Shown: positions 6,392-64,000, numbered from the stretch's first letter. The stretch: DNA of 64,000 nt from an uncultured Candidatus Saccharibacteria bacterium (GCA_964448295.1 CAYUVV010000001.1:23838-87837), one strand, 5' to 3'. A program made the numbers and translations. Notes: generated by a model not told the origin, from the letters alone.

Positions 6392-6463
6392 AGGCGCGGG
6401 CGGGAATTGAACCCGCGTATAAGGGTTTTGCAGACCCTTGCCTTACCACTTGGCTACCGCGCC
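6392..6463 (-). tRNA. tRNA-Cys(GCA)
   Basis: Reverse complement reads GGCGCGG TA GCCAAGTGGTAAGGC, anticodon loop CTGCAAA, T-arm GCGGG-TTCAATT-CCCGC, acceptor 3' CCGCGCC. Confidence 0.85.
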
Positions 6464-9603: not shown

Positions 9604-10209
9604 ATGCACCAGTTACCCTCCTTGCCTTACGAATACAACGCCCTCGAGCCGCACATTGATGAAGCGACGATGCGTTTGCATCACGGCAAACATCATCGTG
9701 GTTACGTTGATAAATTGAACGCCGCGCTCGAAAAATATCCTGTTTGGCAAGAGAAAACCCTCGACGAGCTCTTGCTTAACTTGAAAGCGTTACCCGAGGA
9801 GATCAAGGAGACGATAGCGAATAACGGTGGTGGGCATTATAACCACAGTTTGTTCTGGACCTTGCTGGCTCCGGCCGCTGGCTCGATGTCTGGTCCGGGC
9901 GCGCTGATTCTTAAGCTACTTGAAAAAGATTTTACTAGTTTAGAAAATTTTAAAAGAATTTTTACGGAGACCGCGCTAAAAGTTTTTGGTTCTGGCTGGG
10001 TGTGGCTCGTCAAAGACGGAGCGCAGAAATTAGTTGTTATTAGTTTGCCCAACCAAACCACTCCGATAACTTACGGCCAACCAATCTTGGGCTTGGATGT
10101 GTGGGAGCACGCTTATTATCTTAAGTATCAGAACCGGCGAGCGGATTACATAACGGCCTTTTGGTCGGTGGTTAACTGGCGCGAGGTGGAAAAGCGCCTT
10201 ACCTCTTGA
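9604..10209 (+). CDS. Fe/Mn-family superoxide dismutase
   Basis: LPSLPYEYNALEPHIDEATMRLHHGKHH and DVWEHAYYLKYQNRRADYI motifs. Start chosen at MHQLPSLPY. Confidence 0.85.
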   Translation: MHQLPSLPYEYNALEPHIDEATMRLHHGKHHRGYVDKLNAALEKYPVWQEKTLDELLLNLKALPEEIKETIANNGGGHYNHSLFWTLLAPAAGSMSGPGALILKLLEKDFTSLENFKRIFTETALKVFGSGWVWLVKDGAQKLVVISLPNQTTPITYGQPILGLDVWEHAYYLKYQNRRADYITAFWSVVNWREVEKRLTS

Positions 10210-10243
10210 TTTAAGTAAAATAGTGTGTTAGCTTGTAAAAATT

Positions 10244-11194
10244 ATGGAGGATCTCAATAAAAATCAGATAGTTTTGTTGACCTTACTCGTTAGTTTCGTT
10301 ACTTCAATTGCGACGGGCATCGTGACGGTTACGTTGATGGACCAGGCGCCGGCCGGGGTAACGCAAACCATCAACCAAGTGGTGGAGCGAACAATCGAAC
10401 GGGTGGTGCCGGCGGAAACACAGACGACGACCGTGATTCGGGAGGTGCCCGTAGTTGTAACAGAAGAAGAGCAGGTGGTTAAAGCCGTGGCCGCGGCCTC
10501 ACCAGCCCTGGTGCGCTTGGCGCTCGTGCCGGAGAAAGATGATCTGTTGGTAATTGAGGCAGTGGCGATCGGGTTTATCACTGGCGATTCCGGTTTGATC
10601 ATTTCTAGCCAGCCGATTTTTCCCATTTCTGCCGCCGTGCCGGTTGCGGCCACGAAAAAATTAACGACGGAGCCAAACAAATTGCACGCCGTGCTCGCTG
10701 ATGGACGATCTTTGCCGATTAAACCAATTGGGGACAATCTGCTTACCCGTTTGGGCGAGGGTGGGTCGGCGAGCCAAAACGCTCGTGGCGTTAGCGCTTG
10801 GCAAATTGATTTGTCGGCGGAAGAGGTAGCCAAATTGCCGCATGTTGATATGTCTCTTGATCAGCTCGTTGTCGGCCAAAGGGTTTTGGCTTTGGGGTTG
10901 GACGCTTCCGGCCGGCCGTTGGTGGAAGATGGTATTGTTTCAGGCGGGCCGGCCTTATCGGCTATCGGTGGGAGAATGGCCACAACGACCGCTACCACCA
11001 CTCCAACCATTCCTCCAGCGGTTGGAAATTTCTTGATTATCACCGACGCGGTGACGGCCGAAAATGCCGGCGGCCCGCTTTTGAGTTTGAGCGGTCGAGT
11101 GGTGGGTGTTAATTTGTCGGCCGGTCGCGCTCTGCCGAGCGCGACCTTGCTCGCTCTGCTTGCCGAGGCTGTTAACGACGCAACGAGCCGCTAA
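10244..11194 (+). CDS. Membrane protein with a degenerate, probably inactive, trypsin-like (S1C/HtrA-type) domain
   Basis: N-terminal TM helix. The C-terminal ENAGGPLLSLSGRVVGVNLSAG matches the HtrA GNSGGPL...GINTA block, but the catalytic Ser is Ala and the His region reads ...ISSQ. Confidence 0.4.
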   Translation: MEDLNKNQIVLLTLLVSFVTSIATGIVTVTLMDQAPAGVTQTINQVVERTIERVVPAETQTTTVIREVPVVVTEEEQVVKAVAAASPALVRLALVPEKDDLLVIEAVAIGFITGDSGLIISSQPIFPISAAVPVAATKKLTTEPNKLHAVLADGRSLPIKPIGDNLLTRLGEGGSASQNARGVSAWQIDLSAEEVAKLPHVDMSLDQLVVGQRVLALGLDASGRPLVEDGIVSGGPALSAIGGRMATTTATTTPTIPPAVGNFLIITDAVTAENAGGPLLSLSGRVVGVNLSAGRALPSATLLALLAEAVNDATSR

Positions 11195-11204
11195 CCCATT
11201 TTTT

Positions 11205-47800: not shown

Positions 47801-49081
47801 ACCCCTCCGGGCGCAATTCAGGGTTTGACAGCCGTGATTGGCGGCGCCGGCCTAACATCTTATCTAGTAAGTTGGGCGGCTCCGGCCCAAGACGGTAATG
47901 TTGCAAGCTCTGGCGCGGTTGCTAACTACGACCTTCGTTATTCTCTACAGAATATCACAGAAGCGAATTGGTCTTCTGCTGTTGCGGTAACCGGTGAGCC
48001 GCCACCCGGCATACCGGGCGCCTCACAGGATTACACCTTGGTTGGTTTAACTTCCGGCACGACGTATTATGCCGCTCTTAAATCCACTGATGTGGCCAAC
48101 AATCTCTCGCCGCTATCTAATGTAATCTCTTTTAGAACTTTATCAGATCCGCCGCCTGGTCCCGTCATCCCCGGTGGTGGTCCTGGTGGTCCGCACGACG
48201 CTCGTCCGCCGGTATTTGCCTTGCAGGCGGAAATTACTCCCGGACCAGGACAGGCCGTGCTTACTTGGACTAAGCCGACTGATGCCAATTATGTGCGAAC
48301 GCTTATTGTTCGTAGTGCCAATCCCCTGACAGCTTCTGCTGCCAGCACCCAAAATCCAGAACGTCTCACGGGGACGACGGTGGTGTATGAGGGCGCCGAC
48401 CAGTCATTTACCGATACCGGTTTAACCAACGGGCGTACGTATTATTACGCCATTTATGCCTACGACCAGCGTCGTCAGTTCAATCGTCCACAAATTCTTT
48501 CGACCAAGCCCCTTGCCGGCTCGACGAATCAACAGAATGATCCTACCACCGCGCGCGTGGCGACGACGAATTCTTTTTCGGTGACCGATTCGTGTCGTGT
48601 CGAGTCGGTAGTAACGGCGCCAGTCTCGCTGGTCCGCGGTCCTTTTGGTGTTGGTTTGACTTCGCCAGAAGTGCGTCTTTTGCAGGCGATGCTTGCCACG
48701 GATTCTACGTTATATCCAGAGGGGGTGGTTGATGGTTATTATGGCCCGGCGGTAGTACGCGCCATTCAGCGTTTTCAAGCCCGTGAGGGACTAGTGCGGG
48801 CTGGGACACCAGAGACGACGGGTTATGGACTGGCCGGTCCGCAGACCCGCGCCGCCCTGAATCGGGTTTTGGGCGTTCCCAAAACTGTAACGCGAACGGT
48901 GTGTTCGTCTGGCGCGGTTTCAACAGCTGATGGTATTGGCAACTCCGTTTCCAATCCGACTAACACCGTCGGTGGCGATTTAAATAATTCTAGTAATTTA
49001 GCGGCGTTGCTAATTCGCTTGCGCCTAATTCTGCGTTTATTGCTCGAACGTCTCGGCGCGTTTATCTTCGGTTGGTGGTAA
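41801..49081 (+). CDS. Giant multidomain cell-surface protein (2,426 aa)
   Basis: N-terminal signal/TM, then two identical Listeria-Bacteroides-type repeats, about 10 SBBP beta-propeller repeats, InlB-B-like repeats, a LamG/ConA-like lectin domain, an Ig-like domain, a PKD domain, a right-handed parallel beta-helix, three FN3-like domains and a C-terminal peptidoglycan-binding (PG_binding_1-like) domain. Confidence 0.85.
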   Translation: MDRQSSSLSLAGVFLAALLFALALWAGTYIPIDSLVSGSNRLAVEKQLAQVGGGPTTVVLSAAADAAVRGGNFQTINYGSGNELGIYQAGGQWDIQPYLRFDLSNISGNVTAARLRFYIVNGDDSSSPRPVSLLAVDDNSWDETSLNWQNRPSTGSALGSFAFGSETSTFTGWQDVTNYVSGKVAAGAASFALRHSAGGEYAGIASRESGQPAELEVTYDSTVVTPPTTRTLATTANPSAGGTISRQPNQTNYPDGSVVTLTATPNPGYQFNNWSGDLSGSQNPVSVQLTQDKTVTANFGVTSPSGGNSGYDLTWSTYFGGSGEDTVRDVVVDAGGNVYVTGGTGSSNFPLVNPAQPAFGGNHDVFVSKFGANGALLWSTYLGGPGYDRAYAVELDGVGNVYVAGRAGSGFPVTSGVLQATFAGDSNVNNNYGPQDGFVAKFNSNGQKLWATYLGGPDRSFIRDIDVDSSGNVYAVLTDVSQSNGYQTTGAYQGTVAGGANGFIAKLNSAGTQIQWGTYVGGASSGPGFGTPSIRVASNGEVVAMGTSAFAGDPVSNGLRSHAGALDMYVLRLSSDGRTRRWSTYLGGNADEFSETHSLALNSAGDVYAAFTTRSSNLPGAGVGYQLALGGVSNTGNYNGDGFVAKLSGNGGVLLAATYLGGSSGDGLEGVGVDSAGGVYVSGGTFSADFPITSDARQNSRRGEADWFVSKLTGDLSSLVYSTYLGGTSNCAAAGDTVCDYARSATVNAGGDFYVVGHTNSSNFPTLGATPSLSTNPAGSNVNTGAIAKFSTGGVVVPPTDYTITASVSGGNGTINPSGVVTVSAGGSRTFTFSPATGFQVGTVVVDGATLTPPPPTYTFSNVSSAHTITISFSPVAPTTRTLATTANPSAGGTISRQPNQTNYPDGSVVTLTATPNPGYQFNNWSGDLSGSQNPVSVQLTQDKTVTANFGVVQAVQPLLLRLEFDDDNADGVATDSSSFGNNGTCVGAVCPRYLSAGSEDGSGAYDWDGTNDVLALPDSPSLRPTTNLSIATWVRFSSLSAAQAIVNRWSTNGFAWSFATHWQNPREFYLALDGDGTAPADYFAISAGANLQPNTWYHLAATFDGNSVILYKNGQPLPTTVSGTRPVRLHTGPSTPLVGSIGGTSFLNGRLDRTRIFDSALTPSEIAVLAQVSNQTGDVTPPVVAVTAPVSGVTLSGVVNFAATAADVGGSIAGVRFLLDGIALGQEITTAPYATIWDSATVANGPHQLVAEARDAAGNLSTSAPVNFVVNNQAVGAITINLTALPASGAAPLAVFFDASGTTYGGSAIRPFHDLDYRWDFGDPASGVWDTNGQSRNAGRGPLNAHVFERPGTYTVTLSVSDGQGQVATRQSIVNVNVPTSGTCYSTTGNFSGCPTGFQQVTTSQVAGNGLYRRGETFTRVGNLSNVSLLGAFGTGPRPRLVFTSAPSAVSASNNALIHGVAIDGGGYAIQAGGLGTEHLFVVDNEIKNFYNYGLYKGPFSLGPEVASRYNAVMGNWFDTASSNEHAIRTYIAKSYIGHNRIDGNYPRGTNIKFVGTLCADGSNDYNLIADNYFNHREPQAGMLAIGAGDAGHINCSKDLIIERNYFDNKIDGWPKAAMGAGTRFDRVTIRNNIAREMSHFISNTGETGASYSDWRIYNNLFYNTNLFPSGYYFLLSKGSMPGLEVRNNIVQTFGGSVRAGLELQKDAPATVTETNNIWYGDFNPLFRIGGTNYSFAQWQALGKGAGSLIQNPFLTSPGNGDFSLTAASPAIDQGFSLRSVANDFLGNYRPHDGNNSGTAEWDIGPYEFGSSGGGNPNPPTTTYYTITVNAGANGTVNPGTATVAAGSSQSFTITPNGGYQIANVLVDGQSMGPITTHTFSGVQANHNLTAAFSPFVPSDTTPPIISNVRATNISQTGALITWQTDEPARSFAEYGFTTAYGQQTVNTTVLATNHAANLNNLSPGVVYHYRAVSIDALGNLSRSINFVFQTLPSPVPDTTPPGAIQGLTAVIGGAGLTSYLVSWAAPAQDGNVASSGAVANYDLRYSLQNITEANWSSAVAVTGEPPPGIPGASQDYTLVGLTSGTTYYAALKSTDVANNLSPLSNVISFRTLSDPPPGPVIPGGGPGGPHDARPPVFALQAEITPGPGQAVLTWTKPTDANYVRTLIVRSANPLTASAASTQNPERLTGTTVVYEGADQSFTDTGLTNGRTYYYAIYAYDQRRQFNRPQILSTKPLAGSTNQQNDPTTARVATTNSFSVTDSCRVESVVTAPVSLVRGPFGVGLTSPEVRLLQAMLATDSTLYPEGVVDGYYGPAVVRAIQRFQAREGLVRAGTPETTGYGLAGPQTRAALNRVLGVPKTVTRTVCSSGAVSTADGIGNSVSNPTNTVGGDLNNSSNLAALLIRLRLILRLLLERLGAFIFGWW
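42479..42703 (+). repeat. Exact 225-bp intragenic direct repeat, copy 1
   Basis: Nucleotide-identical to 44432..44656. Flanking bases differ on both sides. Confidence 0.9.
44432..44656 (+). repeat. Exact 225-bp intragenic direct repeat, copy 2
   Basis: Offset of 1953 bp (multiple of 3) from copy 1, so in frame. Antisense spurious ORFs in the track are identical over this span. Confidence 0.9.
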
Positions 49082-54867: not shown

Positions 54868-54955
54868 GGAGGGTTCGCATAGTGGTCTAGTGCGCTCGCT
54901 TGGAGAGCGAGTATGCTGCAAGGCATCAAGGGTTCGAATCCCTTACCCTCCGCCA
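54868..54955 (+). tRNA. tRNA-Ser(GGA), CCA encoded
   Basis: 88-nt type II tRNA. Acceptor GGAGGGT/ACCCTCC, anticodon loop TTGGAGA, variable-arm hairpin, T-arm AAGGG-TTCGAAT-CCCTT, G-CCA. Confidence 0.85.
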
Positions 54956-55960
54956 ATTTGCACATTCGCCGATTTGGGGATTGGTTGCCTCGCGGCTTCG
55001 CCGCTCGGCATTGAATTTTGCGGGGATTTTCCAAGCATTTTTCAAATCCAAAACCAACGCCCGATCGGCAATGCGAAAGTTCGAACCAATCTTTTTGAGA
55101 AAATCCCGTCCCGCGACGGGATTTTCTTGCAAGGCGATATTTTCGGCTTGGTCGGCTTCTTTTATGAAATCAATCATGGGTTCGAACCGATTATTGCTCT
55201 TTCGCTCAAAAGCGTTGATTTTTTCTTCCAAATCCTTTTTAGCGAGAATGAGCTTGTGCTTTTTGGCGGCGTACTCCGTTTGTGAAAGCGAGCCGTCCAA
55301 ATGTAAATCTAAAAGTTTGTCTATCTTGCTTTCCATTTCTACAAGCTCATCTCGCGTCTTTTGAGCGAAAGAGCTTTCTGCTTGGGCGGTTTCCAGTTTT
55401 TCTTTTTCCAGTTCGTTTATGCAATTTTCCGCCCAAGCAGAACACAAAGAAACTTTTTGAATTTCATTTTTGATCTGCGAGGTGATGGCGTCCTCCCGTA
55501 CATACCTTTGCTCACAGCGGACTTTTCTTTTGGTGCACCGCAAGTAGTTATGTCTTTTCTGCGTTTCAGTGGTGATAAAACAACCGCACCCGCCACAGCG
55601 GAAAAGTCCGCGATAGATATATGGTTTGAGTTTTGGCGTTTTAGGTTTTGATTTTCTCGCCATCACCTCTTGGCATTTATCAAAAAGTTTCTTTGTGATA
55701 ATCGGTTCGTGCTTTCCGTCATACAATTCGCCATTGTACTCAATTACGCCGTAGTAGATTTTATTTTTGAGTATGTACTGGTAATTGGAGACGGAAAGCA
55801 CCTTGCCTTTCTTGCCAACCAAGCCCAAGGAATTGATAATCTTTCGGATTTGAGCTAGGGGATATTCGCCAGTTGAGTACATTTCAAAAGCCCGCTTGAT
55901 AAACTTTGATTTTTCTTTGTCCACAACTATTTTGCGGCTACAAATTGAAATAATCTCCAA
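54926..55960 (-). pseudogene. Large serine recombinase lacking the N-terminal catalytic resolvase domain (truncated integrase remnant)
   Basis: Starts at the recombinase domain (YPLAQIRKIINSLGLVGKKGKVLSVSNYQYILKNKIYYG). It has a zinc ribbon CGGCGCFITTE...LRC and a coiled-coil tail. The last 10 codons are antisense to the tRNA-Ser 3' end. Confidence 0.6.
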
Positions 55961-56023
55961 AATTTGCTATACTTGTTTTGTAGGTAGAGAAGTAAATCTC
56001 TCATAACTCTATACTATCAAAGT

Positions 56024-56230
56024 TTGGATATTATGGCAACAATAGCACAAAACCTAAAACGAATACGAACAAAACAAGGATTGACGCAGGACGACTTGGC
56101 GAAGAAAGCCAATATCAAATACTCTACCCTTACCAAAATTGAGGGTGGTGTCGTTACCAAGCCAAGTGTTCAAACCATTGCAAAAATCGCCAAGTCGTTA
56201 GATGTTTCGGTTGAAGATCTGCTAAAATAA
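56024..56230 (+). CDS. XRE-family helix-turn-helix transcriptional regulator
   Basis: HTH_3 pattern RIRTKQGLTQDDLAKKANIKYSTLTKIEGG. Confidence 0.8.
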   Translation: MDIMATIAQNLKRIRTKQGLTQDDLAKKANIKYSTLTKIEGGVVTKPSVQTIAKIAKSLDVSVEDLLK

Positions 56231-56288
56231 AGATACCCGATTATTGATAGCCATTGTTAGCAATTTACAAAAGGTGTAATATATAAAT

Positions 56289-56813
56289 ATGGAATTTATC
56301 AAGAAAAATATAACTTTGGTTGTCGGTATATCCATACCGATACTGATGATACTTTTTGTCGCTGGGAGTATTTACTTGCCCGGGCTTTTTATACAACCAA
56401 AGTTCAATTTTCTCTATGCGAGCGGTGATGATTATTACTACTACTACAATCAATACCAATACTCTGTGCAAAATGGGAAACTTGTGAGAAGCGAGCGGCA
56501 AAGACCAGAAGGTCAAACTTATCCCCCAGAGAGAGAAGTTAAATTATATGTCCACGATGTCGCAAAAAATGAGAGCCGCGAAATTTCTTTTGAAGAAACA
56601 CAAAATTTGACCCTTGACTCAAACACAAAATCGCCAGATGAATTTGAGGTTGTACATGGAAGCCGTGGCGATGGCTTTTTTCCATTCTTCTTTTGGTCGG
56701 AAAGGGATTACAATACACGATATCTCAAAGGTCATAATGTGAGTAAAAAATTAAATCTCCAGTTGAGCGGGTCATATTACAATAATTTCCGCTTTATTGG
56801 CTGGATAAAATAA
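56289..56813 (+). CDS. Hypothetical membrane-anchored protein
   Basis: 174 aa with an N-terminal TM helix. Tyr-rich and AT-rich. Confidence 0.5.
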   Translation: MEFIKKNITLVVGISIPILMILFVAGSIYLPGLFIQPKFNFLYASGDDYYYYYNQYQYSVQNGKLVRSERQRPEGQTYPPEREVKLYVHDVAKNESREISFEETQNLTLDSNTKSPDEFEVVHGSRGDGFFPFFFWSERDYNTRYLKGHNVSKKLNLQLSGSYYNNFRFIGWIK

Positions 56814-56818
56814 AATCT

Positions 56819-57805
56819 ATGGCAACCAAAGAAGAAGTTTTGCAATATATCCGTTCACTCGCCGAGCAAAAAATCATCACGAAAGATGAACTTACCGAGG
56901 CGTACGATTCGGGAAGCGGTATAAAGCAAGATGTTGTTTTAACGAAAAAGCTCGGTGTCGCAGAAATTTTGTACTACATTGGCGGCGCGATTGTATTTTT
57001 GGGAATTTCAATTTTGCTTTGGCAAAATTGGTCAACGCTTGGATTTGGAACAAAGGTATTAGCGACACTCGGATCCGGTATCGCGGCGTATTTCGTCGGT
57101 CTGCTGTTCAGCAGAGACGAGCGAACCGAAACTGCTGGCTCTGCTTTCTACCTTATTTCTGCTCTTGTCACGCCGATTGGTCTTTGGGTTGTGTTTGATA
57201 ACGCAGGATTTGACGCCAGTAGTTACGCTTCGCAGAGTCTGATTTCGGGAATACTGTTAGGTACTTATTTGCTTTCATTCCTCGTTTTCCGAAAAAACAT
57301 CTTTACTCTGTTTAGTATTTTATTTGGCACTTGGCTTTTCTTCAGTTTAACGAGTTGGATGGTAGGCGGCGCGCCATACTTCGATGATTGGAAGTTTTAC
57401 ATGTACCGCGTTCTTGTCGCCGGAGTCGCTTATATTCTCATGGGCTACGCCTTCTCGAAAAATGAGCGTGCCCCACTTTCCGGATTTCTGTATGGTTTTG
57501 GGATTTTGGGCGTTCTCGGTTCGGCTCTTGCTCTTGGTGAATGGAAACCGAACCAAAATGTATTTTGGGAATTGATTTATCCGGGGCTTGTTTTTGGGGC
57601 ACTATTCTTGAGTGTCCATATCAAGAGCAAGGCATTTCTGACGTGGGGCACGCTCTTTCTCATGGCCTACATTCTCAAAATTACATCAGAGTATTTCTCA
57701 ACGGGTCTTGGTTGGCCGCTCGCTCTCGTTATTTCTGGCCTCGCCATGATTGGAGTTGGCTATATGTCGCTCTCAATCAAAAAGAAGTACCTCTCTTCTC
57801 AATAG
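56819..57805 (+). CDS. Hypothetical polytopic membrane protein with an N-terminal soluble domain
   Basis: 328 aa with about 8 TM helices. Confidence 0.5.
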   Translation: MATKEEVLQYIRSLAEQKIITKDELTEAYDSGSGIKQDVVLTKKLGVAEILYYIGGAIVFLGISILLWQNWSTLGFGTKVLATLGSGIAAYFVGLLFSRDERTETAGSAFYLISALVTPIGLWVVFDNAGFDASSYASQSLISGILLGTYLLSFLVFRKNIFTLFSILFGTWLFFSLTSWMVGGAPYFDDWKFYMYRVLVAGVAYILMGYAFSKNERAPLSGFLYGFGILGVLGSALALGEWKPNQNVFWELIYPGLVFGALFLSVHIKSKAFLTWGTLFLMAYILKITSEYFSTGLGWPLALVISGLAMIGVGYMSLSIKKKYLSSQ

Positions 57806-57844
57806 TATAGCCGCAAAAATTTTTCGCCGTGGGAGCGAGGGCGC

Positions 57845-57877
57845 GGCGGAAGGGGGGGGTGTGGGGGGAATTCCGCC
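57845..57877. repeat. G-rich hairpin repeat, copy 1 (GGCGGAA-GGGGGGGGTGTGGGGGGAA-TTCCGCC)
   Basis: A palindromic GGCGGAA/TTCCGCC stem encloses a G8-TGT-G6 loop. A similar copy lies at 61954. Confidence 0.6.
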
Positions 57878-57922
57878 GCGCCCGAGCGTAGTCCCGCCGC
57901 CCGCGCGCCAGCGCGGAGCCGA

Positions 57923-58000
57923 GCAGAACATTTTGCCTGTCCTTTTAGAAGAATTTTTTGGTGGCGCGCGCAAAATCAAAATGAAGGGCAAAATGTTATG
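57923..58000. repeat. Imperfect direct repeat, left copy (TCCTTTTAGAAGAA...GCGCGCGCAAAATCA)
   Basis: About 75% similar to 60975..61055 in the same orientation. Both copies lie just outside the 106-bp inverted repeats. Confidence 0.5.
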
Positions 58001-58027
58001 CGAGGCAGGCCGCCGCTTGCGGCGGCT

Positions 58028-58133
58028 GGCGGCGGGGCTGGCTCCGGCTCGCAGGCGAAAAGTTTCCTCCCCCAACCCCCCTCCACTTTTTGCCTGCTCG
58101 CTGGGGAAAAATTACACGTCAGATTGACGAGAT
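58028..58133. repeat. Perfect 106-bp inverted repeat, left copy (IR-L)
   Basis: Exact reverse complement of 60845..60950. It contains a C5AAC7 tract and ends with TTGACGAGAT at its inner edge. Confidence 0.9.
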
Positions 58134-58176
58134 GATGATTTACGAAAACCTTCAACAATTATATTGTAACATTACA

Positions 58177-58881
58177 ATGGAATCTAATAAAGATATAAAA
58201 CGCAAAATTATTCCTATAGGTGGTGGCTTATTGCGTTTGGGCGAAACGATTTTGATAGATAAGTTTATTGTAAAAGAAAGCGGAAAAAAAAATCCGAACG
58301 TTTTATTTATACCCACCGCAAGTAAAGATTTGCCAGCATACTCTGCCGTTTTTCGTCGTGTGTATGAAAAATTAGGGTGCCGAGTAAAAATCTTACGTTT
58401 ATTTAATAAAAGAAAATTCTCTCGAACAACAGTGAAGGAACTCATCACAAATGCCGATATTATTTATGTCGGCGGTGGTGATTATGACACCTTGTTTTCA
58501 GTATGGAAGAAACATAAAATTGTTCCTTTCATACAGTCAGCATACCAACAAGGAACTATCCTCACCGGGTTAAGTGCGGGGTGTGCCATCTGGTATGAGT
58601 ATCTCGTAGACAGGGATAAAAACAAAAAACCCCACCTTAAAATAGGTCTCGGCATACTTAAGGGTGCCGTGATTCCTCACTATAAAAGTGAGAATACATT
58701 TCCTCCTAAAATTGATAAGACAAAAACCCTTATTACTGCCATTGAAGATAGGTGTGCGGTGATATACATTGATGAACACCTAAGAGGTTCTGTGCCAGTA
58801 GCCAAAGAAAAAGCCTTTACAATTCGCCCTCCTTATGTTAAAAAGATAGGGGTAACTTTGTACTTTCACAAATCGCGTTAA
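58177..58881 (+). CDS. S51-family serine peptidase (dipeptidase E / cyanophycinase-like)
   Basis: IIPIGGG ... IYVGGGDYDTLFSVW ... LTGLSAGCAIWYEY, matching the S51 Ser-nucleophile region. Upstream in-frame ATGs at 58132/58135 lie inside IR-L. Confidence 0.65.
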   Translation: MESNKDIKRKIIPIGGGLLRLGETILIDKFIVKESGKKNPNVLFIPTASKDLPAYSAVFRRVYEKLGCRVKILRLFNKRKFSRTTVKELITNADIIYVGGGDYDTLFSVWKKHKIVPFIQSAYQQGTILTGLSAGCAIWYEYLVDRDKNKKPHLKIGLGILKGAVIPHYKSENTFPPKIDKTKTLITAIEDRCAVIYIDEHLRGSVPVAKEKAFTIRPPYVKKIGVTLYFHKSR

Positions 58882-58900
58882 ACCAAAAAGGAGGTGGCAA

Positions 58901-59968
58901 ATGATCTCGAAAATCCCGCGCCCCCTCCAATTCGGAGATGGGGTGGCTTTGGTCAATCCGGCAGGAGTGCTTCCGGAGCGGTTCAAAAACCAACACGGAT
59001 ACGTCAAGGCACATCTTGAGGAACTTGGATTCGCGGTAAAAGACCTCGTAATCGAAAGTGGCTGGGAGGACGCACAAAGACGCAGCGAAACACTAATGTC
59101 GGCTTTCACCGACCCACAAGTGAAAGCGGTACTGCCTCTTTGTGGCGGTATAAGAATTTACGACGTTCTTCCGCTGATTGATTACGAGGTGTTAGCTAAT
59201 CATCCGAAGATCATCTGTGGTTCAAGCGAGCTTTCGGCTCTTGTGGTGACGATTGCTGAGAAGGCGGGCATTGTAACGTTTTTCGGTCCGCACCTGAACT
59301 TTCTGAACCCAAAGGCGTCAAAACTTGAGAACAGATTCACGGTAAGGAGCTTTTGGAATATGCTCCAATGGGATTGGCACGGAAGAAACGGCTTGAGCAA
59401 GAACGAGGCGTATCACTTTTTCGCCGCACCTCGAAAGCCAACGCTTCCGGTAACAGTTCGTAACATTTACCGTGACCCGACGCTCATCATAGACGACCGC
59501 TACAGGGACAATTTCTACTTCACCACTTCTAGTATGGATGTGACTGGAAAGCTCTTGATCGGATCACTTGCGGTCATGGCGAAGCTTTGTGATGAAGGCT
59601 TGTGTCCCGATGTAACGGATAAGATCGTCATGCTCGATTCGCTGGATATGTCATTCGAAACGATTGTCGAATTGATCCAGCGCTTCAATGCTCACTGCGA
59701 TCTTTCCCGCGCCGCAGCTGTTGTCTTTTCCTCGCTCGCCGAGAGGACGGATCGAAAGAATCGCTTGCATCCGGAATTGAGAGATTCTGATCGGGTGAAG
59801 GGTTTTCTTCAGGAAGTCTCGGGACTTCTTAGAGGAAGGCCGCCGCTCTTTCACGGTTTTCCCGTTGGACACTGTACGTACAAACTCACTCTGCCGATTG
59901 GGATTACCGCCTCCATCGTTGTGGAAACGGGCGACTTGCTACTCACGGAGTTCCCGCATCAACAATAA
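58901..59968 (+). CDS. S66-family LD-carboxypeptidase (LdcA / microcin-C7 immunity MccF-like)
   Basis: 355 aa. ICGSSELSALVV matches the S66 nucleophile-Ser block. A GGAGGTG SD lies upstream. Confidence 0.6.
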   Translation: MISKIPRPLQFGDGVALVNPAGVLPERFKNQHGYVKAHLEELGFAVKDLVIESGWEDAQRRSETLMSAFTDPQVKAVLPLCGGIRIYDVLPLIDYEVLANHPKIICGSSELSALVVTIAEKAGIVTFFGPHLNFLNPKASKLENRFTVRSFWNMLQWDWHGRNGLSKNEAYHFFAAPRKPTLPVTVRNIYRDPTLIIDDRYRDNFYFTTSSMDVTGKLLIGSLAVMAKLCDEGLCPDVTDKIVMLDSLDMSFETIVELIQRFNAHCDLSRAAAVVFSSLAERTDRKNRLHPELRDSDRVKGFLQEVSGLLRGRPPLFHGFPVGHCTYKLTLPIGITASIVVETGDLLLTEFPHQQ

Positions 59969-60003
59969 AGGCCGAATAGAATTTGTTCTATTCGGCCTTT
60001 TTA
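59967..60003. terminator. Bidirectional rho-independent terminator between convergent genes
   Basis: Perfect 13-bp stem AGGCCGAATAGAA / TTCTATTCGGCCT with a 4-nt loop, flanked by AAA on one side and TTTT on the other. Confidence 0.8.
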
Positions 60004-60777
60004 CTTTTCCGCAAGGAGGTCATTGATGAACCGATCGTTCTCATAAGCTACGCCGTATTCGAGGTTCAACGCCATGAGTTGAAGGCGTTCCCGAAGCACG
60101 GCATCGTGACTCAGTCGCTCAGCAAGAGTCACCAGCGCCTCTCTCGTTTCTTTCTTGTAGTTTTGGAGTTTGATGTACACCGCATTCCGAAAGAATATAA
60201 CGAGATTAAGATCGGAAGCGTTGAGAGAATCAAACTTTGCTCGGTCAAGTTCGTAAGCTAGTTCGCGACGCATGGCGAGCATGAGTTCAAGATATGCTGA
60301 TGAAGCCTCTTGAACCCGCCGTTTACCTACCAACTCAACGAAGCGTGACGTTGCAGTATCGACCGTGTCGCCGGAAAAGATTTTGCAACCGAACGATACG
60401 GTAACATCCTCATCAGCGAGATGAGCGTTTTCTCTGATGAAGTTGTTAACCTCATCTTCCAACAGTGAGAAAAACTCGTTTACGACCGCCTCGTTAGTTG
60501 CTACTCCGGTAGCGAAGATTTCTTCTCCCGAAGGAATCATGCAAAACACCGGAATTACTTTTGGGTGCTTCTTGATAAACCCATACATGAACGCGCCAAT
60601 GAGGCGATTGTAGATGTCTACAAGATTTTCCGCCAATGGCCGTCCGTATCGCGATACGAAGACTCCAAGATTGTCGAGATCTCCAGTGACCCCAAATAGA
60701 AACAGATCTCGATTGCGGTCATAGGCCTCGACAACTTTCAAAACCTTTCTGCTCCAGATACGCTGGTGCTTTTTCAT
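60001..60777 (-). CDS. Stand-alone GGDEF-like nucleotide cyclase (palm) domain protein with an SGEEI active-site variant and a ~90-aa helical C-terminal extension
   Basis: The GGDEF-fold blocks appear in order: DLDNLGVFVSRYGRPLAENLV (like DIDHFKxINDTFGHxxGDEVL), CMIPSGEEIFATG (like RYGGEEF) and DVTVSFGC (like TISIGV). No sensor domain or I-site RxxD. Strong SD AAAGGAGA. Confidence 0.55.
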   Translation of the reverse strand: MKKHQRIWSRKVLKVVEAYDRNRDLFLFGVTGDLDNLGVFVSRYGRPLAENLVDIYNRLIGAFMYGFIKKHPKVIPVFCMIPSGEEIFATGVATNEAVVNEFFSLLEDEVNNFIRENAHLADEDVTVSFGCKIFSGDTVDTATSRFVELVGKRRVQEASSAYLELMLAMRRELAYELDRAKFDSLNASDLNLVIFFRNAVYIKLQNYKKETREALVTLAERLSHDAVLRERLQLMALNLEYGVAYENDRFINDLLAEK

Positions 60778-60825
60778 AAGTCATCTCCTTTTCTGTTTTG
60801 TGAATGTGCTGTATGAACTTGCCAT

Positions 60826-60854
60826 ATATTACATTATCTTTTTAATCTCGTCAA
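60826..60854 (-). promoter_or_regulatory. Near-consensus promoter TTGACG-17-TAATAT for the GGDEF-like gene, with the -35 inside IR-R
   Basis: On the minus strand the -35 TTGACG is the inner end of IR-R, followed by a 17-nt spacer and TAATAT. The same TTGACG ends IR-L, facing the S51 gene. Confidence 0.45.
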
Positions 60855-60950
60855 TCTGACGTGTAATTTTTCCCCAGCGAGCAGGCAAAAAGTGGAGGGG
60901 GGTTGGGGGAGGAAACTTTTCGCCTGCGAGCCGGAGCCAGCCCCGCCGCC
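60845..60950. repeat. Perfect 106-bp inverted repeat, right copy (IR-R)
   Basis: Exact reverse complement of 58028..58133. Confidence 0.9.
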
Positions 60951-60974
60951 TGCCGAACGTTCTCGGCAGAGACC

Positions 60975-61055
60975 CGCAGAAAAATGTTCTCATCCTTTTA
61001 GAAGAAAAAATCGGGCGCGCGCAAAATCAGAAAAGCGGAGAACATTTTTCTGCGG
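60975..61055. repeat. Imperfect direct repeat, right copy, followed by a second GGCGGCGGGGC motif
   Basis: Same orientation as the copy at 57923-58000. It is followed by GGCGGCGGGGCGG, resembling the outer end of IR-L. Confidence 0.5.
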
Positions 61056-61515
61056 GGCACGCGAGCGAAGCGAGCGGCGGCGGGGCGGTTCAGTCCTCGT
61101 CCGGATGTTCGTCAAAGTAGGTTCGGATTTTAACCAAAAGGTACCGCCAATTAGGAATTTTCAAAGGGTTTTTTGGCGAAAAAGAAATGCTTTTATCAAT
61201 CAAAATATGGTTCGAGCCGATTTATTTTAAAAATGTTGTCATTTCTCCGTTATCCCTAGATTTAAATAAATTTTCCGCTTGATTCAAGGATTTAATCCAC
61301 GCACGAGCCAGTTCGAGCCAAGACACGGTCCATACGCTTACACAGCTCACGATATGGGCTATGGTGGATGGATTCATTGGGATTCGTCGGGGGCGGCTTT
61401 TTACTAGTATCCAACAAATCCGCCATTGTTCACGGTAGATTTTTATACCTGCAAAACTTCTGTTATACTGAAACGTTGTATGAAATTGTGTTTTTTACTT
61501 TTATAATAGTTACCA

Positions 61516-61817
61516 TGGAACAACAAATTAAAGAAATTTTCCAAACAAGAGACAGAGCAGTCGCTGAAAAAAATAAGGACTTGCTTTTATCAACTCAAAT
61601 TAATGAAATTCCAAAATCAGGGAGCGATGGTTACCTAAAAACTGACAAACTTGTTTCTAAAGTATTGTATATCCATCAGGATGATAAAGATTTACAGCTC
61701 TATCTTGCTTTGATACAAGAGGATTATTTTTACAATGGTAAATTTTCCCATAGAGGTTATTTACTTTATAAATTAAGAAACGACGGAAAATTATTAATTA
61801 CCGAAATAATATGGTAA
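61516..61817 (+). CDS. Hypothetical small protein (~100 aa)
   Basis: Start chosen at MEQQIKEIF. AT-rich. The track ORF starts at 61368. Confidence 0.4.
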
Positions 61818-61953
61818 AAACACAACATCACATAACAGCAAACGTTAAAGGAAATAGAATTTACCGCCAAACTGGGCAAAGCCCAGAGTTCCGCTAAAAG
61901 CGGAACAAAAAACTTGAAATCGTCCAATCCGAAAGGGTCGCTTCTGCGGTCGG

Positions 61954-61988
61954 GCGGAAGGGGGGTTTGGGGGGAATTCCGTCCGCCC
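61954..61988. repeat. G-rich hairpin repeat, copy 2 (GGCGGAA-GGGGGGTTTGGGGGGAA-TTCCGTCCGCC)
   Basis: Direct, imperfect copy of 57845..57877. Confidence 0.6.
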
Positions 61989-62191
61989 TACAAATTTAGG
62001 GCGAAATCAGTTCAAATTTTTTCGAAAGCACGCCGCCGGTCGCTAAGGGCAAAAGAAATTTTTTCATACTGAATTTTCTCAATAGTCGGCAAGATTGTCG
62101 ACTATTGACTTTTATTGTGTAATATGCTATCTTTGAATGAAATCTGGGCATGGTGCTTAGATAATTTGAACCTTGAAAACGGAGGTAAAAA

Positions 62192-62464
62192 ATGAGCAGA
62201 AAGAACTGGTACTTGGTGTACACGCACACCAACGAGATGGAAGCCGGAACGTTTCGTGACGGTATCGAAGACATGGAAGTCGCTTTGAAAGCGACCACCG
62301 AAGCCGAAGCTGTCGCGGAAGCGGAATCGAAGTGGGCTGAGATCGTCAAGGAACGCGACGAGTATTGGGAGAAGTGCAAGAAGACATGGGCACATCCTCC
62401 CGCCAGTCCAACCGAGTGGGGCGCTCGCAACCCTCGTGTCATCTACAAAATCTCGCTACAATGA
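62192..62464 (+). CDS. Hypothetical acidic small protein
   Basis: 90 aa with a strong SD (ACGGAGGTAAAAA-ATG). G+C is higher than the adjacent island DNA. Confidence 0.5.
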   Translation: MSRKNWYLVYTHTNEMEAGTFRDGIEDMEVALKATTEAEAVAEAESKWAEIVKERDEYWEKCKKTWAHPPASPTEWGARNPRVIYKISLQ

Positions 62465-62475
62465 GGAGGATGACG

Positions 62476-63096
62476 ATGACACCCGAACAACGCTGGGCGA
62501 CCCTGTGGCAACGCCTCGGTGCGCAAGGGGACGCAAACGCGGTCTACAACGGCCTTGTTGTGCGATACTCCGAACCGCACCGAGCGTACCACACGCTCGA
62601 ACACATCGGACACTGCATCGACGAACTCGAACAAGTCCGGCACCTCGCAGCAAATTCTGATGCTGTGGAGTTGGCTCTCTGGTATCACGACGCAATCTAC
62701 GATACCAAAGCCAAGAACAGCGAGGAGCGGAGTGCGGCGCTCGCGGTGGAAATGGTGAGAAGTGCTTCGTTGCCCGGCAACCTCGGTCAATCGGTAGCGA
62801 GTCTCATCATGGCAACGAGACACACCGCAGTTCCCACCGACCCCGATGTTCAGCTTCTCGTGGACATCGATCTCTCGATCCTCGGGCAAACCGAGGCGAG
62901 ATTCGATGAATACGAGCGGCAAGTTCGCAAGGAGTACGAGTGGGTGCCGGAAGATCAGTTTGTTGCCGGACGGTCGGCGATACTCAAGTCGTTTATCGAC
63001 CGACCGAACATCTACTCGACGCAGTTCTTCCGCAACAAATACGAAGCGCAAGCCAGAGCGAACATCGTTCGATCGCTTGCCCGCCTCCGGGCGTAA
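62476..63096 (+). CDS. HD-superfamily metal-dependent phosphohydrolase-like protein
   Basis: H...H, HD and D motifs (AYHTLEHIGHC ... LALWYHDAIYD). SD AGGAGG lies 6 nt upstream of the ATG at 62476. Confidence 0.55.
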   Translation: MTPEQRWATLWQRLGAQGDANAVYNGLVVRYSEPHRAYHTLEHIGHCIDELEQVRHLAANSDAVELALWYHDAIYDTKAKNSEERSAALAVEMVRSASLPGNLGQSVASLIMATRHTAVPTDPDVQLLVDIDLSILGQTEARFDEYERQVRKEYEWVPEDQFVAGRSAILKSFIDRPNIYSTQFFRNKYEAQARANIVRSLARLRA

Positions 63097-63099
63097 CAT

Positions 63100-63137
63100 G
63101 GGCACTTCTCGCAAGAGGGTGCCCATTCTTCTTTTTG
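63100..63137 (+). terminator. Rho-independent terminator
   Basis: GGGCAC...GTGCCC stem followed by ATTCTTCTTTTTG. Confidence 0.5.
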
Positions 63138-63180
63138 AAAGAACTATTTTGTGCGTGCTTCGCACGCTCGAATTTGTATT

Positions 63181-63205
63181 CCGCCAAAGAAAAATTGGAA
63201 ATTGT
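63181..63205. repeat. 25-nt exact repeat copy B (CCGCCAAAGAAAAATTGGAAATTGT)
   Basis: Identical to 14965..14989. Confidence 0.6.
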
Positions 63206-63315
63206 CAGTGTGCGCGGCGAGGATCAAATTCCGTTCGAGCTATTTTTAAAATACACCGCCAAGAATTACATTTCGAAAAATCAAGGTTGGAAGCCTCGGC
63301 GCAAAGCGCCTCGGC

Positions 63316-63346
63316 ATTGAATTATTACTCGTGATTAGGTTATAAT
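63316..63346 (+). promoter_or_regulatory. Promoter TTGAAT-18-TATAAT, 10 nt upstream of the ATG (near-leaderless)
   Basis: Exact TATAAT at 63341-63346, with the ATG at 63357. Confidence 0.45.
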
Positions 63347-63356
63347 CCTTCTCATC

Positions 63357-64000
63357 ATGTCATTCTTTAAGAGATTGGGTAAGAGCGTTTACGGGCCCGA
63401 TTATTATCAGCAAGAAGTGTTTACAGAGTCGGGCAAACGGGCTTTCGGCTATTATGAAAAGTTAATTTTATTATTGGCATTGATTACCGGCTTGGTAGCG
63501 ATGGTGACGATGGGTTGGCCGATATCAAAATACGGTCCCGACTGGTTGCAAGAGGTCGAGCAAATTTACCCCGATGATCTGGTGATCGAAATGCGAGAGA
63601 GTCGCTTAACGGCCAACGGCGGTGAGCTCTATTCCGTATCGTTCGACCAGATTTTAGGTACTGATTTTCTAACTTGGCTTGAAGATGATGAGCGGTCGGA
63701 GGATTTACCAACCAATCTCGTTGTGTTCAACACCGGTGCGGGCAAAACCGATTTAGAGTCGTTCGAGACGGCCGATACTCTGATGTTGGTTGGCGGCGAA
63801 AGCATGATTTATCGCGAAAATAATGGCAAAGTGGTGATCCAAAGTTTTAGCCGTTGGCCCGACTTTACTCTTGATAAAGCGAAGGTTGTAGCCAAATTCG
63901 ATCGGTTGTCTAATTTAACGCCGTGGGCTGTGCCGGTCTTTTTTGTTTTGGCATTTATCGGCGGCCTGCTGATTGGCAACACTGTTTGGTTGTTGTTTGC
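63357..64000 (+). CDS. Hypothetical membrane protein, 3' partial (runs off the window)
   Basis: Open frame from ATG 63357 to the window end, with TM helices (LILLLALITGLVAMV; WAVPVFFVLAFIGGLLIG). Confidence 0.5.
   Translation, partial: MSFFKRLGKSVYGPDYYQQEVFTESGKRAFGYYEKLILLLALITGLVAMVTMGWPISKYGPDWLQEVEQIYPDDLVIEMRESRLTANGGELYSVSFDQILGTDFLTWLEDDERSEDLPTNLVVFNTGAGKTDLESFETADTLMLVGGESMIYRENNGKVVIQSFSRWPDFTLDKAKVVAKFDRLSNLTPWAVPVFFVLAFIGGLLIGNTVWLLF

Follow-up and report, generated by a model that had tools for sequence, protein, structure and literature searches.

The locus raises the question of what has entered the 3' end of tRNA-Ser(GGA) in this uncultured Candidatus Saccharibacteria bacterium, a member of the candidate phyla radiation (CPR), how often, and whether the truncated serine recombinase abutting the tRNA can still mobilize it. 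An earlier note, made from the sequence of the window alone (the window being the whole 64,000-nucleotide stretch of DNA analyzed), had described one AT-rich island ending at 62100, with a decapitated integrase, an XRE repressor-like gene, two membrane proteins, and a cassette bounded by inverted repeats, all of which are present (Table 1). The core of that reading, an island at tRNA-Ser with a decapitated integrase, withstood each check that the note had proposed. Its extent and unity did not: the right end lies rather at ~63330, and the ~8.4 kb from 54956 to ~63330 are very probably what is left of at least three small, decayed integrative elements belonging to the same family, inserted successively at the 3' end of the same tRNA gene.

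Right after the tRNA, G+C falls from 0.531 over 1-54867 (1-kb windows; standard deviation, 0.034) to 0.453 over 54956-63330, the drop that the note had seen, and all island-length windows outside the island have a G+C of at least 0.515. The tetranucleotide distance of the island is likewise clearly deviant (0.310, with a maximum of 0.202 outside it). Beyond 63330 follow housekeeping genes of normal G+C. The left-hand synteny LemA-HtpX-CDP-alcohol phosphatidyltransferase-tRNA-Ser(GGA) is kept in three relatives (L003, L004, and L005), and the island genes are absent at the tRNA-Ser(GGA) loci of these and of L008, that is, in all four relatives examined. The right-hand synteny (DUF1189 and an aminoacyl-tRNA synthetase) was found next to tRNA-Ser(GGA) in no relative fetched, so that the empty site of the window's own lineage is not seen directly. 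The region thus adjoins a tRNA 3' end, deviates in composition, and is absent from the same locus in relatives, as befits an island.

Table 1. Features of the tRNA-Ser(GGA) locus, with positions in the window
Position	Strand	Feature	Remarks
54868-54955	+	tRNA-Ser(GGA), intact	ARAGORN; Rfam, 56 bits
54926-55939	-	Integrase remnant 1: recombinase domain, zinc ribbon, coiled coil	Homology to LSR residues ~172-508
55939/55940		Deletion junction	Integrase homology ends at 55936-55939; XRE-upstream homology begins at 55939
55945-55973		Promoter-like site	Upstream of the XRE gene
56024-56230	+	XRE-family HTH gene	First gene of cargo segment; reads inward
56289-56813	+	174-aa membrane protein	Element 1 cargo
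56819-57805	+	328-aa DUF2157-like membrane protein	Element 1 cargo
57806-58006	-	Cargo terminal repeat A, inner ~200 nt only	Closes cargo segment 1; hairpins with GCGCGCGCC loop (57918-58006) and G/C-rich loop (57840-57885)
58007-58133	+	Cargo terminal repeat B, inner part only	
58132-58881	+	S51 peptidase	Cargo segment 2
58901-59968	+	S66 LD-carboxypeptidase	Cargo segment 2
60001-60777	-	258-aa hypothetical protein, CPR-only	Cargo segment 2
60845-61149	-	Cargo terminal repeat C, complete	Core TGGCGG at 61149-61144
61150-61398	-	Integrase remnant 2, residues ~396-501	~30% identity; frameshifted
61518-61817	+	99-aa ORF	No assigned function
61950-61992		Isolated hairpin, G-rich loop	
62192-62464	+	90-aa acidic protein	G+C-rich cargo
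62476-63096	+	206-aa protein	G+C-rich cargo
63190-63330	-	Third attP-like site	Rightmost trace of the element family; P' remnant FNAEALCAEASNLDFSKCNS (63321-63262), core TGGCGG (63261-63256), native-type tail WRCILKIARTEFDPRRAH and stop

The gene next to the tRNA encodes the C-terminal two-thirds of a large serine recombinase (LSR). Its mechanically called ORF (54926-55960, minus strand, 344 aa) extends to a TTG at 55960 and contains a Recombinase domain (PF07508; E, 1.4e-16; residues 16 to 102) and a zinc ribbon (PF13408; E, 2.6e-07; residues 116 to 167); a domain search returned no match to the Resolvase domain (PF00239) in this ORF, confirming the missing catalytic head. Among NCBIfam models, those for the SCCmec recombinases CcrB and CcrC matched best, at 40.2 and 38.5 bits, far under the cutoff of 900. 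Most of the best 120 homologues are 500 to 580 aa long, carry PF00239, PF07508, and PF13408, and are 56 to 84% identical. The window ORF aligns only from residue ~172 of 500- to 550-aa homologues having all three domains, over 337 homologous codons in an open frame (78 to 84% identity). The window and the 9 kb beyond it contain no catalytic-domain remnant, neither the frameshifted one that the note had envisaged upstream of 55960 nor any other. Because the Resolvase domain is absent, the alignment starts at residue ~172, and no catalytic piece lies elsewhere, the ORF is best regarded as a gene remnant and not as a functional member of the LSR family.

From 55939 onward, the sequence is homologous to the XRE-upstream region of two related loci (L092 and L055; 81% nucleotide identity), and the two homologies meet in a clean join without a repeat at the breakpoint. 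A single deletion of ~1 kb took away integrase codons 1 to 171, the inverted 134-bp copy of the integrase 3' end (the P' arm) together with its attP core, and the cargo terminal repeat on the left. The truncation stems neither from a frameshift nor from misassembly, since two independent Logan assemblies from different runs cross the junction (L105, covering 55872-57863 at 100%, and L106, covering 55826-57809 at 99.8%).

At its other end, the final nine codons and the stop of the ORF (54926-54955, 30 nt) run antisense across the tRNA 3' end, as the note had recognized, and encode the tail WRRVRDSNP. The note called this the classic mark of integration into a tRNA gene, but an integrase abutting a tRNA is classically the hallmark of tyrosine integrases. 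Among serine integrases such a placement is uncommon: 14 of 297 were found at tRNA genes, a location called previously unreported (Mageeney 2020, PMC7192596). The attL core, CCGCCA, comprises the final bases of the tRNA (54950-54955), and the window attL reads ...CCTCCGCCAATTTGC. Empty sites in relatives end in ...CCTCCGC followed by A or T (by ATTG in L003, and similarly in L004 and L005), which implies that the encoded CCA of the tRNA was supplied by the element; crossover may have occurred within CCGC. The note had suggested looking for attR as a partial duplicate of the tRNA 3' end, but the last 22 nt recur nowhere else in the window or in L097, even when up to three mismatches are allowed. 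Such a duplicate is not expected, because attB and attP have only CCGC in common.

The design of the family was read from about 80 related loci. Full-length members have Resolvase, Recombinase, and zinc-ribbon domains, a coiled coil, and a YARKSTDE nucleophile motif. Fusion to a tRNA is seen in 56 of 82 integrase copies; in 49 of these the tRNA is tRNA-Ser, with all four sampled anticodons represented. The attP site lies within the integrase 3' end, and 48 of 55 loci have a 134-bp inverted repeat, formed by this 3' end and a second copy upstream of the gene, that is 94 to 100% identical and ends exactly at TGGCGG; these inverted recombination sites are absent beside the window integrase, evidently through deletion. 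Cargo terminal repeats in relatives measure 113 to 294 bp (97.5 to 100% identity), and the XRE gene, a conserved partner gene of the family, adjoins the integrase in ~45 loci. Hybrid attL and attR junctions are both seen, as are attP-form tails, and the overlap with the empty site is CCGC; attR was found in L001, L020, L033, L036, and L080, with cores AGGCGG, TGACGG, GTGCGG, and TTGCGG. The distance from the core to a TTCGAAC motif is 18 nt in the tRNA arm and 23 nt in the P arm, an offset of 5 bp. The integrase segment occurs in both orientations relative to the tRNA (L029 versus L030, from related species; L062), and L017, L058, L075, and L076 have tandem arrays that include older integrases. 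The elements are only ~3 to 7 kb long and show no sign of a directionality factor or of replication or phage genes; IMG/VR holds one distant relative only. The family is abundant, with 1685 database proteins at E ≤ 0.001 and at least 521 confirmed metagenome loci.

Intact relatives show an element of this kind to consist of an integrase segment (~1.75 kb) and a cargo segment that meet at two identical inverted attP sites. The integrase segment holds the LSR gene, with the last 134 bp before the core (the P' arm) repeated in inverted orientation ~110 bp upstream of the gene. The cargo segment starts with the XRE gene, continues with variable genes, and is bounded by inverted terminal repeats of 110 to 300 bp (the P arm), in which the stretch encoding the native integrase tail is found along with GC-rich hairpins. 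In the predicted recombination, one attP would cross over with the tRNA 3' end within the CCGC core, keeping the tRNA intact and swapping the last ~18 integrase codons for antisense tRNA sequence. Newcomers would insert beside the tRNA and shift older elements outward, which would explain why the older integrase remnants have attP-type tails.

The remainder of the island can be read part by part against this design. Repeats A, B, and C match the terminal repeat of L001 collinearly and are confined to the island within the 64 kb. The inverted repeat 58023-58133/60845-60955 (111 nt, 99% identity) has its left arm within repeat B; the cassette that the note saw between these arms is really a cargo segment flanked by the structured terminal repeats of the family, and its three genes also occur together in other CPR genomes at ~80% nucleotide identity. 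Repeat A lacks its outer part and the integrase segment next to it, a second integrase segment having been deleted between repeats A and B. Besides both hairpins and a GC-rich stretch, repeat C contains the core and the native integrase tail coding for WRYLLVKIRTYFDEHPDED and a stop; its folding energy is -116.6 kcal/mol (z = -8.3), and it is joined via the core to integrase remnant 2 in an attP-type junction. The attP-like sites 61144-61149 and 63256-63261 would separate the stacked elements, each being joined to an older integrase remnant, and the isolated hairpin between them is a piece of another cargo terminal repeat. The G+C-rich pair of the note is present, but its HD hydrolase, the 206-aa protein, matched nothing in Pfam, NCBIfam, or the PDB, and that label rests on the names of homologues (HD-superfamily phosphohydrolase) and an H..HD motif. 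Mosaic acquisition, suggested by the note on account of this pair, is directly evident from the two further integrase remnants and the attP-like sites inside the island. Window cargo genes were found in none of the related loci.

In the window, P arms occur only at 61149 and 63261, both joined to integrase P' remnants, and no canonical attR, with the P arm joined to native flank, was recognized at the far end. As the rightmost site is still fused to an integrase fragment, the original right end has presumably been deleted or escapes recognition. The two older integrases are cut down to ~100 and ~22 codons, and with the tRNA-proximal one headless, the island is probably unable to move on its own, in line with the immobilization proposed by the note. 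A point against stacking is that integration would have to use a site in which an old integrase arm takes the place of native flank as the outer half, and canonical LSRs are not known to use such sites. Homologous recombination between related elements could yield the same arrays.

A single acquisition, with the internal repeats and G+C patches already in the donor element, appears improbable to us. Arrays could in principle move as a unit, and the free or unrecombined forms L002 and L025 already have two attP sites and long repeats. However, the three integrase remnants diverge unequally from the same references (~80%, 30%, and 60% identity), each lies in the same orientation at the tRNA-proximal end of its own module, the modules differ sharply in G+C, and similar arrays with intact older integrases exist in L017 and L075.

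The 337-codon remnant, still an open frame, might conceivably retain a function, for instance as a DNA-binding protein that occupies att sites and blocks integration or excision at the tRNA. Its high identity to homologues, the coincidence of the breakpoint with the boundary between catalytic and recombinase domains, the placement of the ORF by the deletion at 63 bp from the XRE promoter region, and the start of several homologues near residue 176-177 all speak for such a role. Still, we consider it unlikely, since N-terminal truncations in the family begin at varied residues (68 to 238), a heterogeneous decay without a single conserved short form. Of three truncated cases inspected, two (P0060 and P0063) turned out to be split genes whose Resolvase domain is encoded by an ORF immediately upstream, and P0010 adjoins an unrelated HTH gene; moreover, the 344-aa product has no identical counterpart recorded elsewhere. 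Finally, although independent contigs break within the integrase remnant and at the terminal repeats, which indicates that these sequences are repeated in the samples, a metagenome assembly artifact through collapse or chimerism at repeated integrase sequences is highly improbable given the repeat-free join and its recovery from different runs.

For annotation, the ~8.4 kb beside tRNA-Ser(GGA) are thus to be treated as foreign, non-autonomous stacked relics and the "integrase" as a remnant. The window relic itself is ordinary; it is the family architecture that appears new, a tRNA-targeting serine integrase between two inverted attP copies being apparently undescribed. The combined reading, to which we give even chances, is that the island is what remains of a class of small, LSR-driven integrative CPR elements, so far undescribed, that are dedicated to tRNA 3' ends, chiefly of all tRNA-Ser isoacceptors, and read mainly the tRNA half of attB, so that elements pile up. 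Their attP would lie inside the integrase 3' end, the native tail WRCFLxxVRTFFxxNP becoming the tRNA-encoded WRRxRDSNP, and a second, identical, inverted attP upstream would divide the element into integrase and cargo segments with near-perfect inverted repeats ending at the crossover core. If so, the second attP could allow the integrase segment to flip, or integration either way, restoring the native tail, and could permit modular exchange of segments between elements. Serine integrases are mainstays of genome engineering with large DNA and are generally believed to avoid tRNA genes. The target of this family is a near-universal sequence, the acceptor and T-arm of tRNA-Ser, and the family offers a testable system for how an LSR reads a tRNA gene. 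It also lets one ask whether C-terminus rewriting or gene inversion controls direction where a directionality factor is apparently absent, and it bears on the trade in cargo genes among tiny, streamlined CPR genomes.

Several known systems share parts of this design. The SSV1-type archaeal integrase is a tyrosine recombinase whose attP lies within the int gene, and integration splits that gene in two. Likewise, the attachment site here is inside the integrase ORF and integration alters the product, but only the last ~18 codons are exchanged; as the window gene misses its N terminus, the SSV1-type mechanism does not explain the decapitation. Islander and P4-type tyrosine islands similarly place the integrase gene at the tRNA-proximal edge, restore the tRNA 3' end, accrete in tandem at one tRNA, and deviate in composition. 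They use another enzyme family, however, and here there is no displaced tRNA 3' fragment, the core being only CCGC. Tycheposons are also small cargo elements that form island arrays at tRNA genes, but they are overwhelmingly driven by tyrosine recombinases (an LSR in 27 of 937), belong to marine cyanobacteria, and often carry replication genes; a dual inverted attP is not described there (Hackl et al., bioRxiv 10.1101/2020.12.28.424599). SCCmec Ccr and composite SCC elements have in common with this family LSRs inserting at the 3' end of a conserved, RNA-related housekeeping gene and stacked, partly decayed arrays, whereas target, host group, architecture, and Ccr model scores all set them apart. 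The relatives of the window element resemble Hin/Gin and the R64 shufflon in having segments bounded by inverted recombination sites and seen in both orientations. Those systems, in contrast, rely on small invertases of the serine or tyrosine type and on short sites, not full LSR attP sites, and the opposite orientations of L029 and L030 fit in-place inversion and integration via either site alike.

The large serine integrases of temperate phages and integrative elements (phiC31, Bxb1, and A118/LI type) have the same domains, a short common core, and hybrid attL and attR sites. Rutherford and colleagues reportedly put forward in 2013 a half-site model in which attB and attP differ by a 5-bp offset, and the TTCGAAC offset of the family agrees with it. 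The window copy departs from these enzymes in lacking the catalytic domain. The family itself departs from them in targeting tRNA 3' ends, which is rare for serine integrases (PMC7192596), in carrying attP in the integrase's own 3' coding end, so that integration rewrites the C terminus, and in having a second, inverted attP upstream of the gene.

The DNA that follows the tRNA-Ser(GGA) gene of the window is likely a stack of decayed elements of one large serine recombinase (LSR) family that can no longer move autonomously. The tRNA gene occupies 54868-54955 on the forward strand (ARAGORN; Rfam agrees, 56 bits), and behind it the G+C content drops, as the earlier note had claimed, from 0.531 over 1-54867 (1-kb windows, sd 0.034) to 0.453 over 54956-63330. 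Outside the island, windows of island length never fall below 0.515, and in tetranucleotide composition the island lies at a distance of 0.310 from the rest of the window, whereas outside windows reach 0.202 at most. The first ORF (54926-55960, minus strand, 344 aa) carries a Recombinase domain (PF07508) and a recombinase zinc ribbon (PF13408). The tRNA 3' end, read on the opposite strand, supplies the last nine codons of this ORF and its stop (WRRVRDSNP), with TGG complementary to the encoded CCA; this confirms the antisense overlap described previously. Likewise, the reported decapitation holds: no Resolvase catalytic domain (PF00239 type) was found in this ORF, which aligns to residues ~172-508 of full-length homologues. 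A search of 5.8 billion proteins returned 1685 relatives, of which most of the best 120 measure 500-580 aa, are 56-84% identical, and combine a Resolvase domain with Recombinase and zinc-ribbon domains; the few that carry a name are from candidate-phyla-radiation (CPR) bacteria (Uhrbacteria, Wolfebacteria). Judged by the catalytic domain that defines a functional LSR, the window ORF is classed as a remnant.

Homologue C termini read WRR(G/D/E)RDSNP..., which is antisense tRNA sequence, and L001, a 1.06-Mb CPR contig, has two family integrases, one extending into tRNA-Ser(TGA) and the other into tRNA-Ser(GCT). Among 82 integrase copies in 80 metagenome loci, the tail was fused to tRNA-Ser in 49 (GCT, 16; GGA, 15; CGA, 10; TGA, 8), to tRNA-Asp in 4, and to tRNA-Trp, tRNA-Gln, and tRNA-Glu in 1 each; 4 copies had a native tail, 14 lay on contigs that stop before the crossover core, and 8 were unclear. 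The native tail reads WRCFL(D/I)(D/E)VRTFF(E/D)(Q/E)NP..., as in the integrase P0002 on locus L002. Empty tRNA-Ser(GGA) sites of relatives read ...CCTCCGC followed directly by ATTG, ATTT, or TTGA, the window reads ...CCTCCGCCAATTTGC at the same tRNA end, and right-end junctions in other loci have AGGCGG, TGACGG, GTGCGG, or TTGCGG preceding the conserved arm. Together, these ends define CCGC as the attB/attP overlap, within which the crossover presumably takes place. The encoded CCA is supplied by the element, with no duplication of the tRNA end upon integration. The partial attR copy that the earlier note envisaged beyond the window is absent, in that no attR-type direct repeat of the tRNA 3' end occurs in the window or downstream. 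In three related contigs (L003 11018-11026, L004, and L005), the tRNA-Ser(GGA) gene lacks an encoded CCA (...CCTCCGC, then A or T), and that of the window, at 54950-54955, comes from the inserted element. A TTCGAAC motif is present on both sides of the core, at a distance of 18 nt in the tRNA and 23 nt in the element, a difference that may fit the 5-bp offset between attB and attP half-sites that is reportedly part of a structural model of serine integrases. In two loci (L050 2040-2284 and L051 1990-2236), the integrase tail runs into TGGCGGAGAGGGTGGG, a stretch that resembles a tRNA-Ser acceptor 3' strand and is separated by ~110 nt of other sequence from an ARAGORN-called tRNA-Ser(GGA) body.

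In intact elements, the last ~134 bp of the integrase before the core (O, TGGCGG), which form the attP arm P', recur inverted ~110 bp upstream of the start codon in 48 of the 55 loci with enough upstream sequence. Examples are seen in L001 (9753-9886 and 11370-11503), L017, L019, L022, L024, L029, L034, L036, L058, and others. The copies within a locus are 94-100% identical, whereas identity to the query integrase P0003 is only 53-95% across loci; the two copies thus evolve in concert. Their identity ends exactly at TGGCGG; beyond it, the gene copy continues into the tRNA and the upstream copy into the other attP arm (P), with native tail coding. The P arm is the end of a longer inverted repeat (113-294 bp, 97.5-100% identity) that bounds the cargo; in L001, where this repeat is 293 bp long (98.3% identity), the far copy borders native flank. 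The layout implies an integrated element in the order tRNA, O, integrase segment with P' repeats, O, cargo segment with P repeats, O, flank, and the excised circle would hold two identical attP sites, inverted relative to each other. Homology between loci is bounded by both cores of the 1751-bp integrase segment; for instance, L030 and L017 (both 9753-11503) match at 93% with different cargo. An inward-reading XRE gene is the first cargo gene in ~45 loci, none of which contains the window's other cargo genes. The elements, ~3 to 7 kb in size, show no evident genes for replication, transfer, or directionality.

The second attP could serve inversion or tail switching, integration either way round, or module exchange. 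L029 and L030 have a chromosomal flank in common at 80% nt identity, with oppositely oriented integrase segments. In L030 (9671-11503) and L062 (6012-7516), the configuration is reversed: it is the upstream repeat copy that adjoins tRNA-Ser(GGA), and the integrase has a native tail. The 9.2-kb contig L018 (6-9167) has the same integrase segment at both ends, inverted, around a 5.6-kb cargo bounded by 195-bp perfect terminal repeats; the contig may reflect a true head-to-head arrangement, or else an invertible structure through which the assembler walked. Two other models were rejected. Integrase and cargo segments moving as independent circles with palindromic att sites would give direct junctions of tRNA and cargo terminal repeat, and none was found among ~56 P-arm sites. 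The only arrangement of this kind, L101 (13382-13620), has tRNA-Ser(TGA), ~20 nt of integrase arm, and then P-arm tail coding and hairpins; since it keeps these ~20 nt, it is a deletion derivative rather than such a junction, its entire integrase segment deleted as at window 58006/58007. Integration of a folded single-stranded form, its repeats pairing into one double-stranded attP, was rejected on paper because double-strand exchange would give hairpin-capped chromosome ends and would place tRNA sequence to either side of the integrase segment, contrary to observation.

Features of the island at tRNA-Ser(GGA), in window coordinates
Feature	Position	Strand	Remarks
attL core, tRNA 3' end	54950-54955		
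Integrase remnant 1	54926-55939	-	
Deletion junction	55939/55940		~1 kb lost: codons 1-171, upstream P' copy and core, left cargo repeat
Cargo segment 1	56024-57805		XRE gene, two membrane proteins
Cargo terminal repeat A, inner 200 nt	57806-58006	-	
Terminal repeat B, inner part	58007-58133	+	Abuts A
Cargo segment 2	58132-60777		S51 peptidase, S66 LD-carboxypeptidase, 258-aa unknown protein
Terminal repeat C, complete	60845-61149	-	Collinear with L001 over ~300 nt
Core	61144-61149		
Integrase remnant 2	61150-61398	-	Native-type tail WRYLLVKIRTYFDEHPDED, then stop
99-aa ORF	61518-61817		
Terminal-repeat hairpin fragment	61950-61992		
G+C-rich gene pair	62192-63096		
Third P'-O-P site	63190-63330	-	FNAEALCAEASNLDFSKCNS-WR-CILKIARTEFDP

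Applied to the window, this family key resolves the island into the features listed in the table. The XRE gene, two membrane proteins, inverted repeat (111 nt, 99%), and G+C-rich gene pair of the earlier note were all recovered, and its cassette bounded by inverted repeats corresponds to cargo segment 2 with family-specific terminal repeats. Between repeats A and B, a whole integrase segment and the outer repeat parts have been deleted. Repeat C folds at -116.6 kcal/mol (z = -8.3); within the 64 kb, the GC-rich terminal repeats are confined to the island, and these hairpin repeats match no known RNA family in Rfam. Older integrases with attP-type tails lie beyond a cargo segment in L017, L058, L075, and L076, indicating that stacking at one tRNA is common. 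For stacking by successive insertion, which we infer here, the integrase would need mainly the tRNA half of attB, consistent with the other half not being conserved among targets. The same arrays would also arise by homologous recombination between related elements. That the island was instead acquired once, as a single composite, we consider unlikely.

The stacked elements have presumably lost their mobility. Integrase homology stops at 55936-55939, and from 55939 onward there is 81% nt homology to the XRE-upstream region of two related elements (L092 and L055), which identifies a clean deletion junction. In tblastn with six full-length homologues, integrase residues 1-170 left no trace in the 64 kb or the next 9 kb, and the gap between the integrase ORF and the divergent XRE gene is only 63 bp; this leaves no place for a frameshifted catalytic domain upstream of 55960. 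Nor was the integrase split by its own integration in the manner of SSV, as the att site is C-terminal whereas the N terminus is missing. The headless protein might still retain an att-binding function, but this is doubtful: N-terminally short homologues begin at many different positions, and the cases inspected proved to be genes that are split or have decayed in other ways, evidence against a conserved, functional short form. An assembly artefact is very unlikely, since the junction is covered in two Logan assemblies made independently from different runs (L105, window 55872-57863 at 100%; L106, window 55826-57809 at 99.8%). No copy of the exact 344-aa product is on record, and two other island proteins matched only short Logan contigs.

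The island ends at about 63330 rather than at 62100 as first proposed, given the third P'-O-P site and the normal G+C without remnants beyond 63920. The Logan contig L097 is identical to window 61920-64000 and reaches 9 kb further, with genes for DUF1189, a class-Ib aminoacyl-tRNA synthetase, DUF218, M3 peptidase, PGI, ROK, and ribonucleotide reductase; in 1-kb windows, G+C is 0.49 to 0.55 past 63920 and 0.47 in 62920-63919, which still includes island sequence. The contig contains no further integrase remnant or tRNA. The order LemA-HtpX-phosphatidyltransferase-tRNA-Ser(GGA) is kept in L003 (neighbouring gene, 75% identity), L004, and L005, and L008 keeps only the phosphatidyltransferase gene and tRNA. 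None of these four relatives has island genes at this tRNA. Downstream, they share no synteny with the right flank of the window, and the empty site of the exact lineage was therefore not seen. A tRNA cluster, Leu(TAG)-Lys(CTT)...Leu(TAA)-Cys(GCA), lies at window 5217-6463, ~48 kb from tRNA-Ser(GGA), versus 3.5 kb downstream of it in L004 (14135-14552), indicating that the region is rearranged. Elsewhere in the window, two stretches of a 2426-aa ORF (41801-49081, plus strand) are repeated: one of 225 nt, perfectly and in direct orientation (42479-42703 and 44432-44656), and another that has diverged (42800-42850 and 44045-44095).

The cargo gave no PADLOC hits to defence systems. The 258-aa, 90-aa, 99-aa, and HD-like proteins have no match in Pfam or NCBIfam, and the 258-aa and HD-like proteins none among PDB sequences. 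The pair described as a small acidic protein plus HD hydrolase is present, but the HD identity finds no match in these databases. The S51/S66/258-aa trio is a conserved CPR module (~80% nt identity; L099 7880-10655, L101 7843-10711) found in unrelated chromosomal contexts with inner terminal-repeat parts retained; in L101, it adjoins the 3' end of tRNA-Gly(GCC). By eye, the 258-aa protein, itself without a PADLOC match, has GGDEF-like motifs (TGDLDNLG, SGEEIF). For the HD-like protein (62476-63096), the database contains 4051 relatives at E <= 0.001; among the best 120, with identities of 63-86%, those with a named source come from several CPR lineages (Lloyd-, Azam-, Nealson-, Sung-, and Liptonbacteria). 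Such conservation is unusually high for CPR and suggests horizontal spread. Some records are named 'NMDA receptor NMDAR2C subunit', evidently a propagated misnomer.

In conclusion, the earlier note correctly described a dead island at a tRNA, an ordinary find when taken by itself. It is valuable for having led to a clade of serine integrases that target tRNA-Ser, with attP within their own 3' end, a second, inverted attP upstream, and modular, repeat-bounded segments. A phage origin was rejected, as IMG/VR holds only a single distant relative. Literature searches on serine recombinases and integrases, tRNA genes, and CPR/Patescibacteria yielded nothing specific to such elements. In Mageeney et al. 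2020 (PMC7192596), 44.5% of tyrosine integrases but only 14 of 297 serine integrases used tRNA or tmRNA genes, and the authors termed such use by the latter previously unreported and in need of proof. Tycheposons (bioRxiv 10.1101/2020.12.28.424599) likewise target tRNA genes, with an LSR in only 27 of 937.
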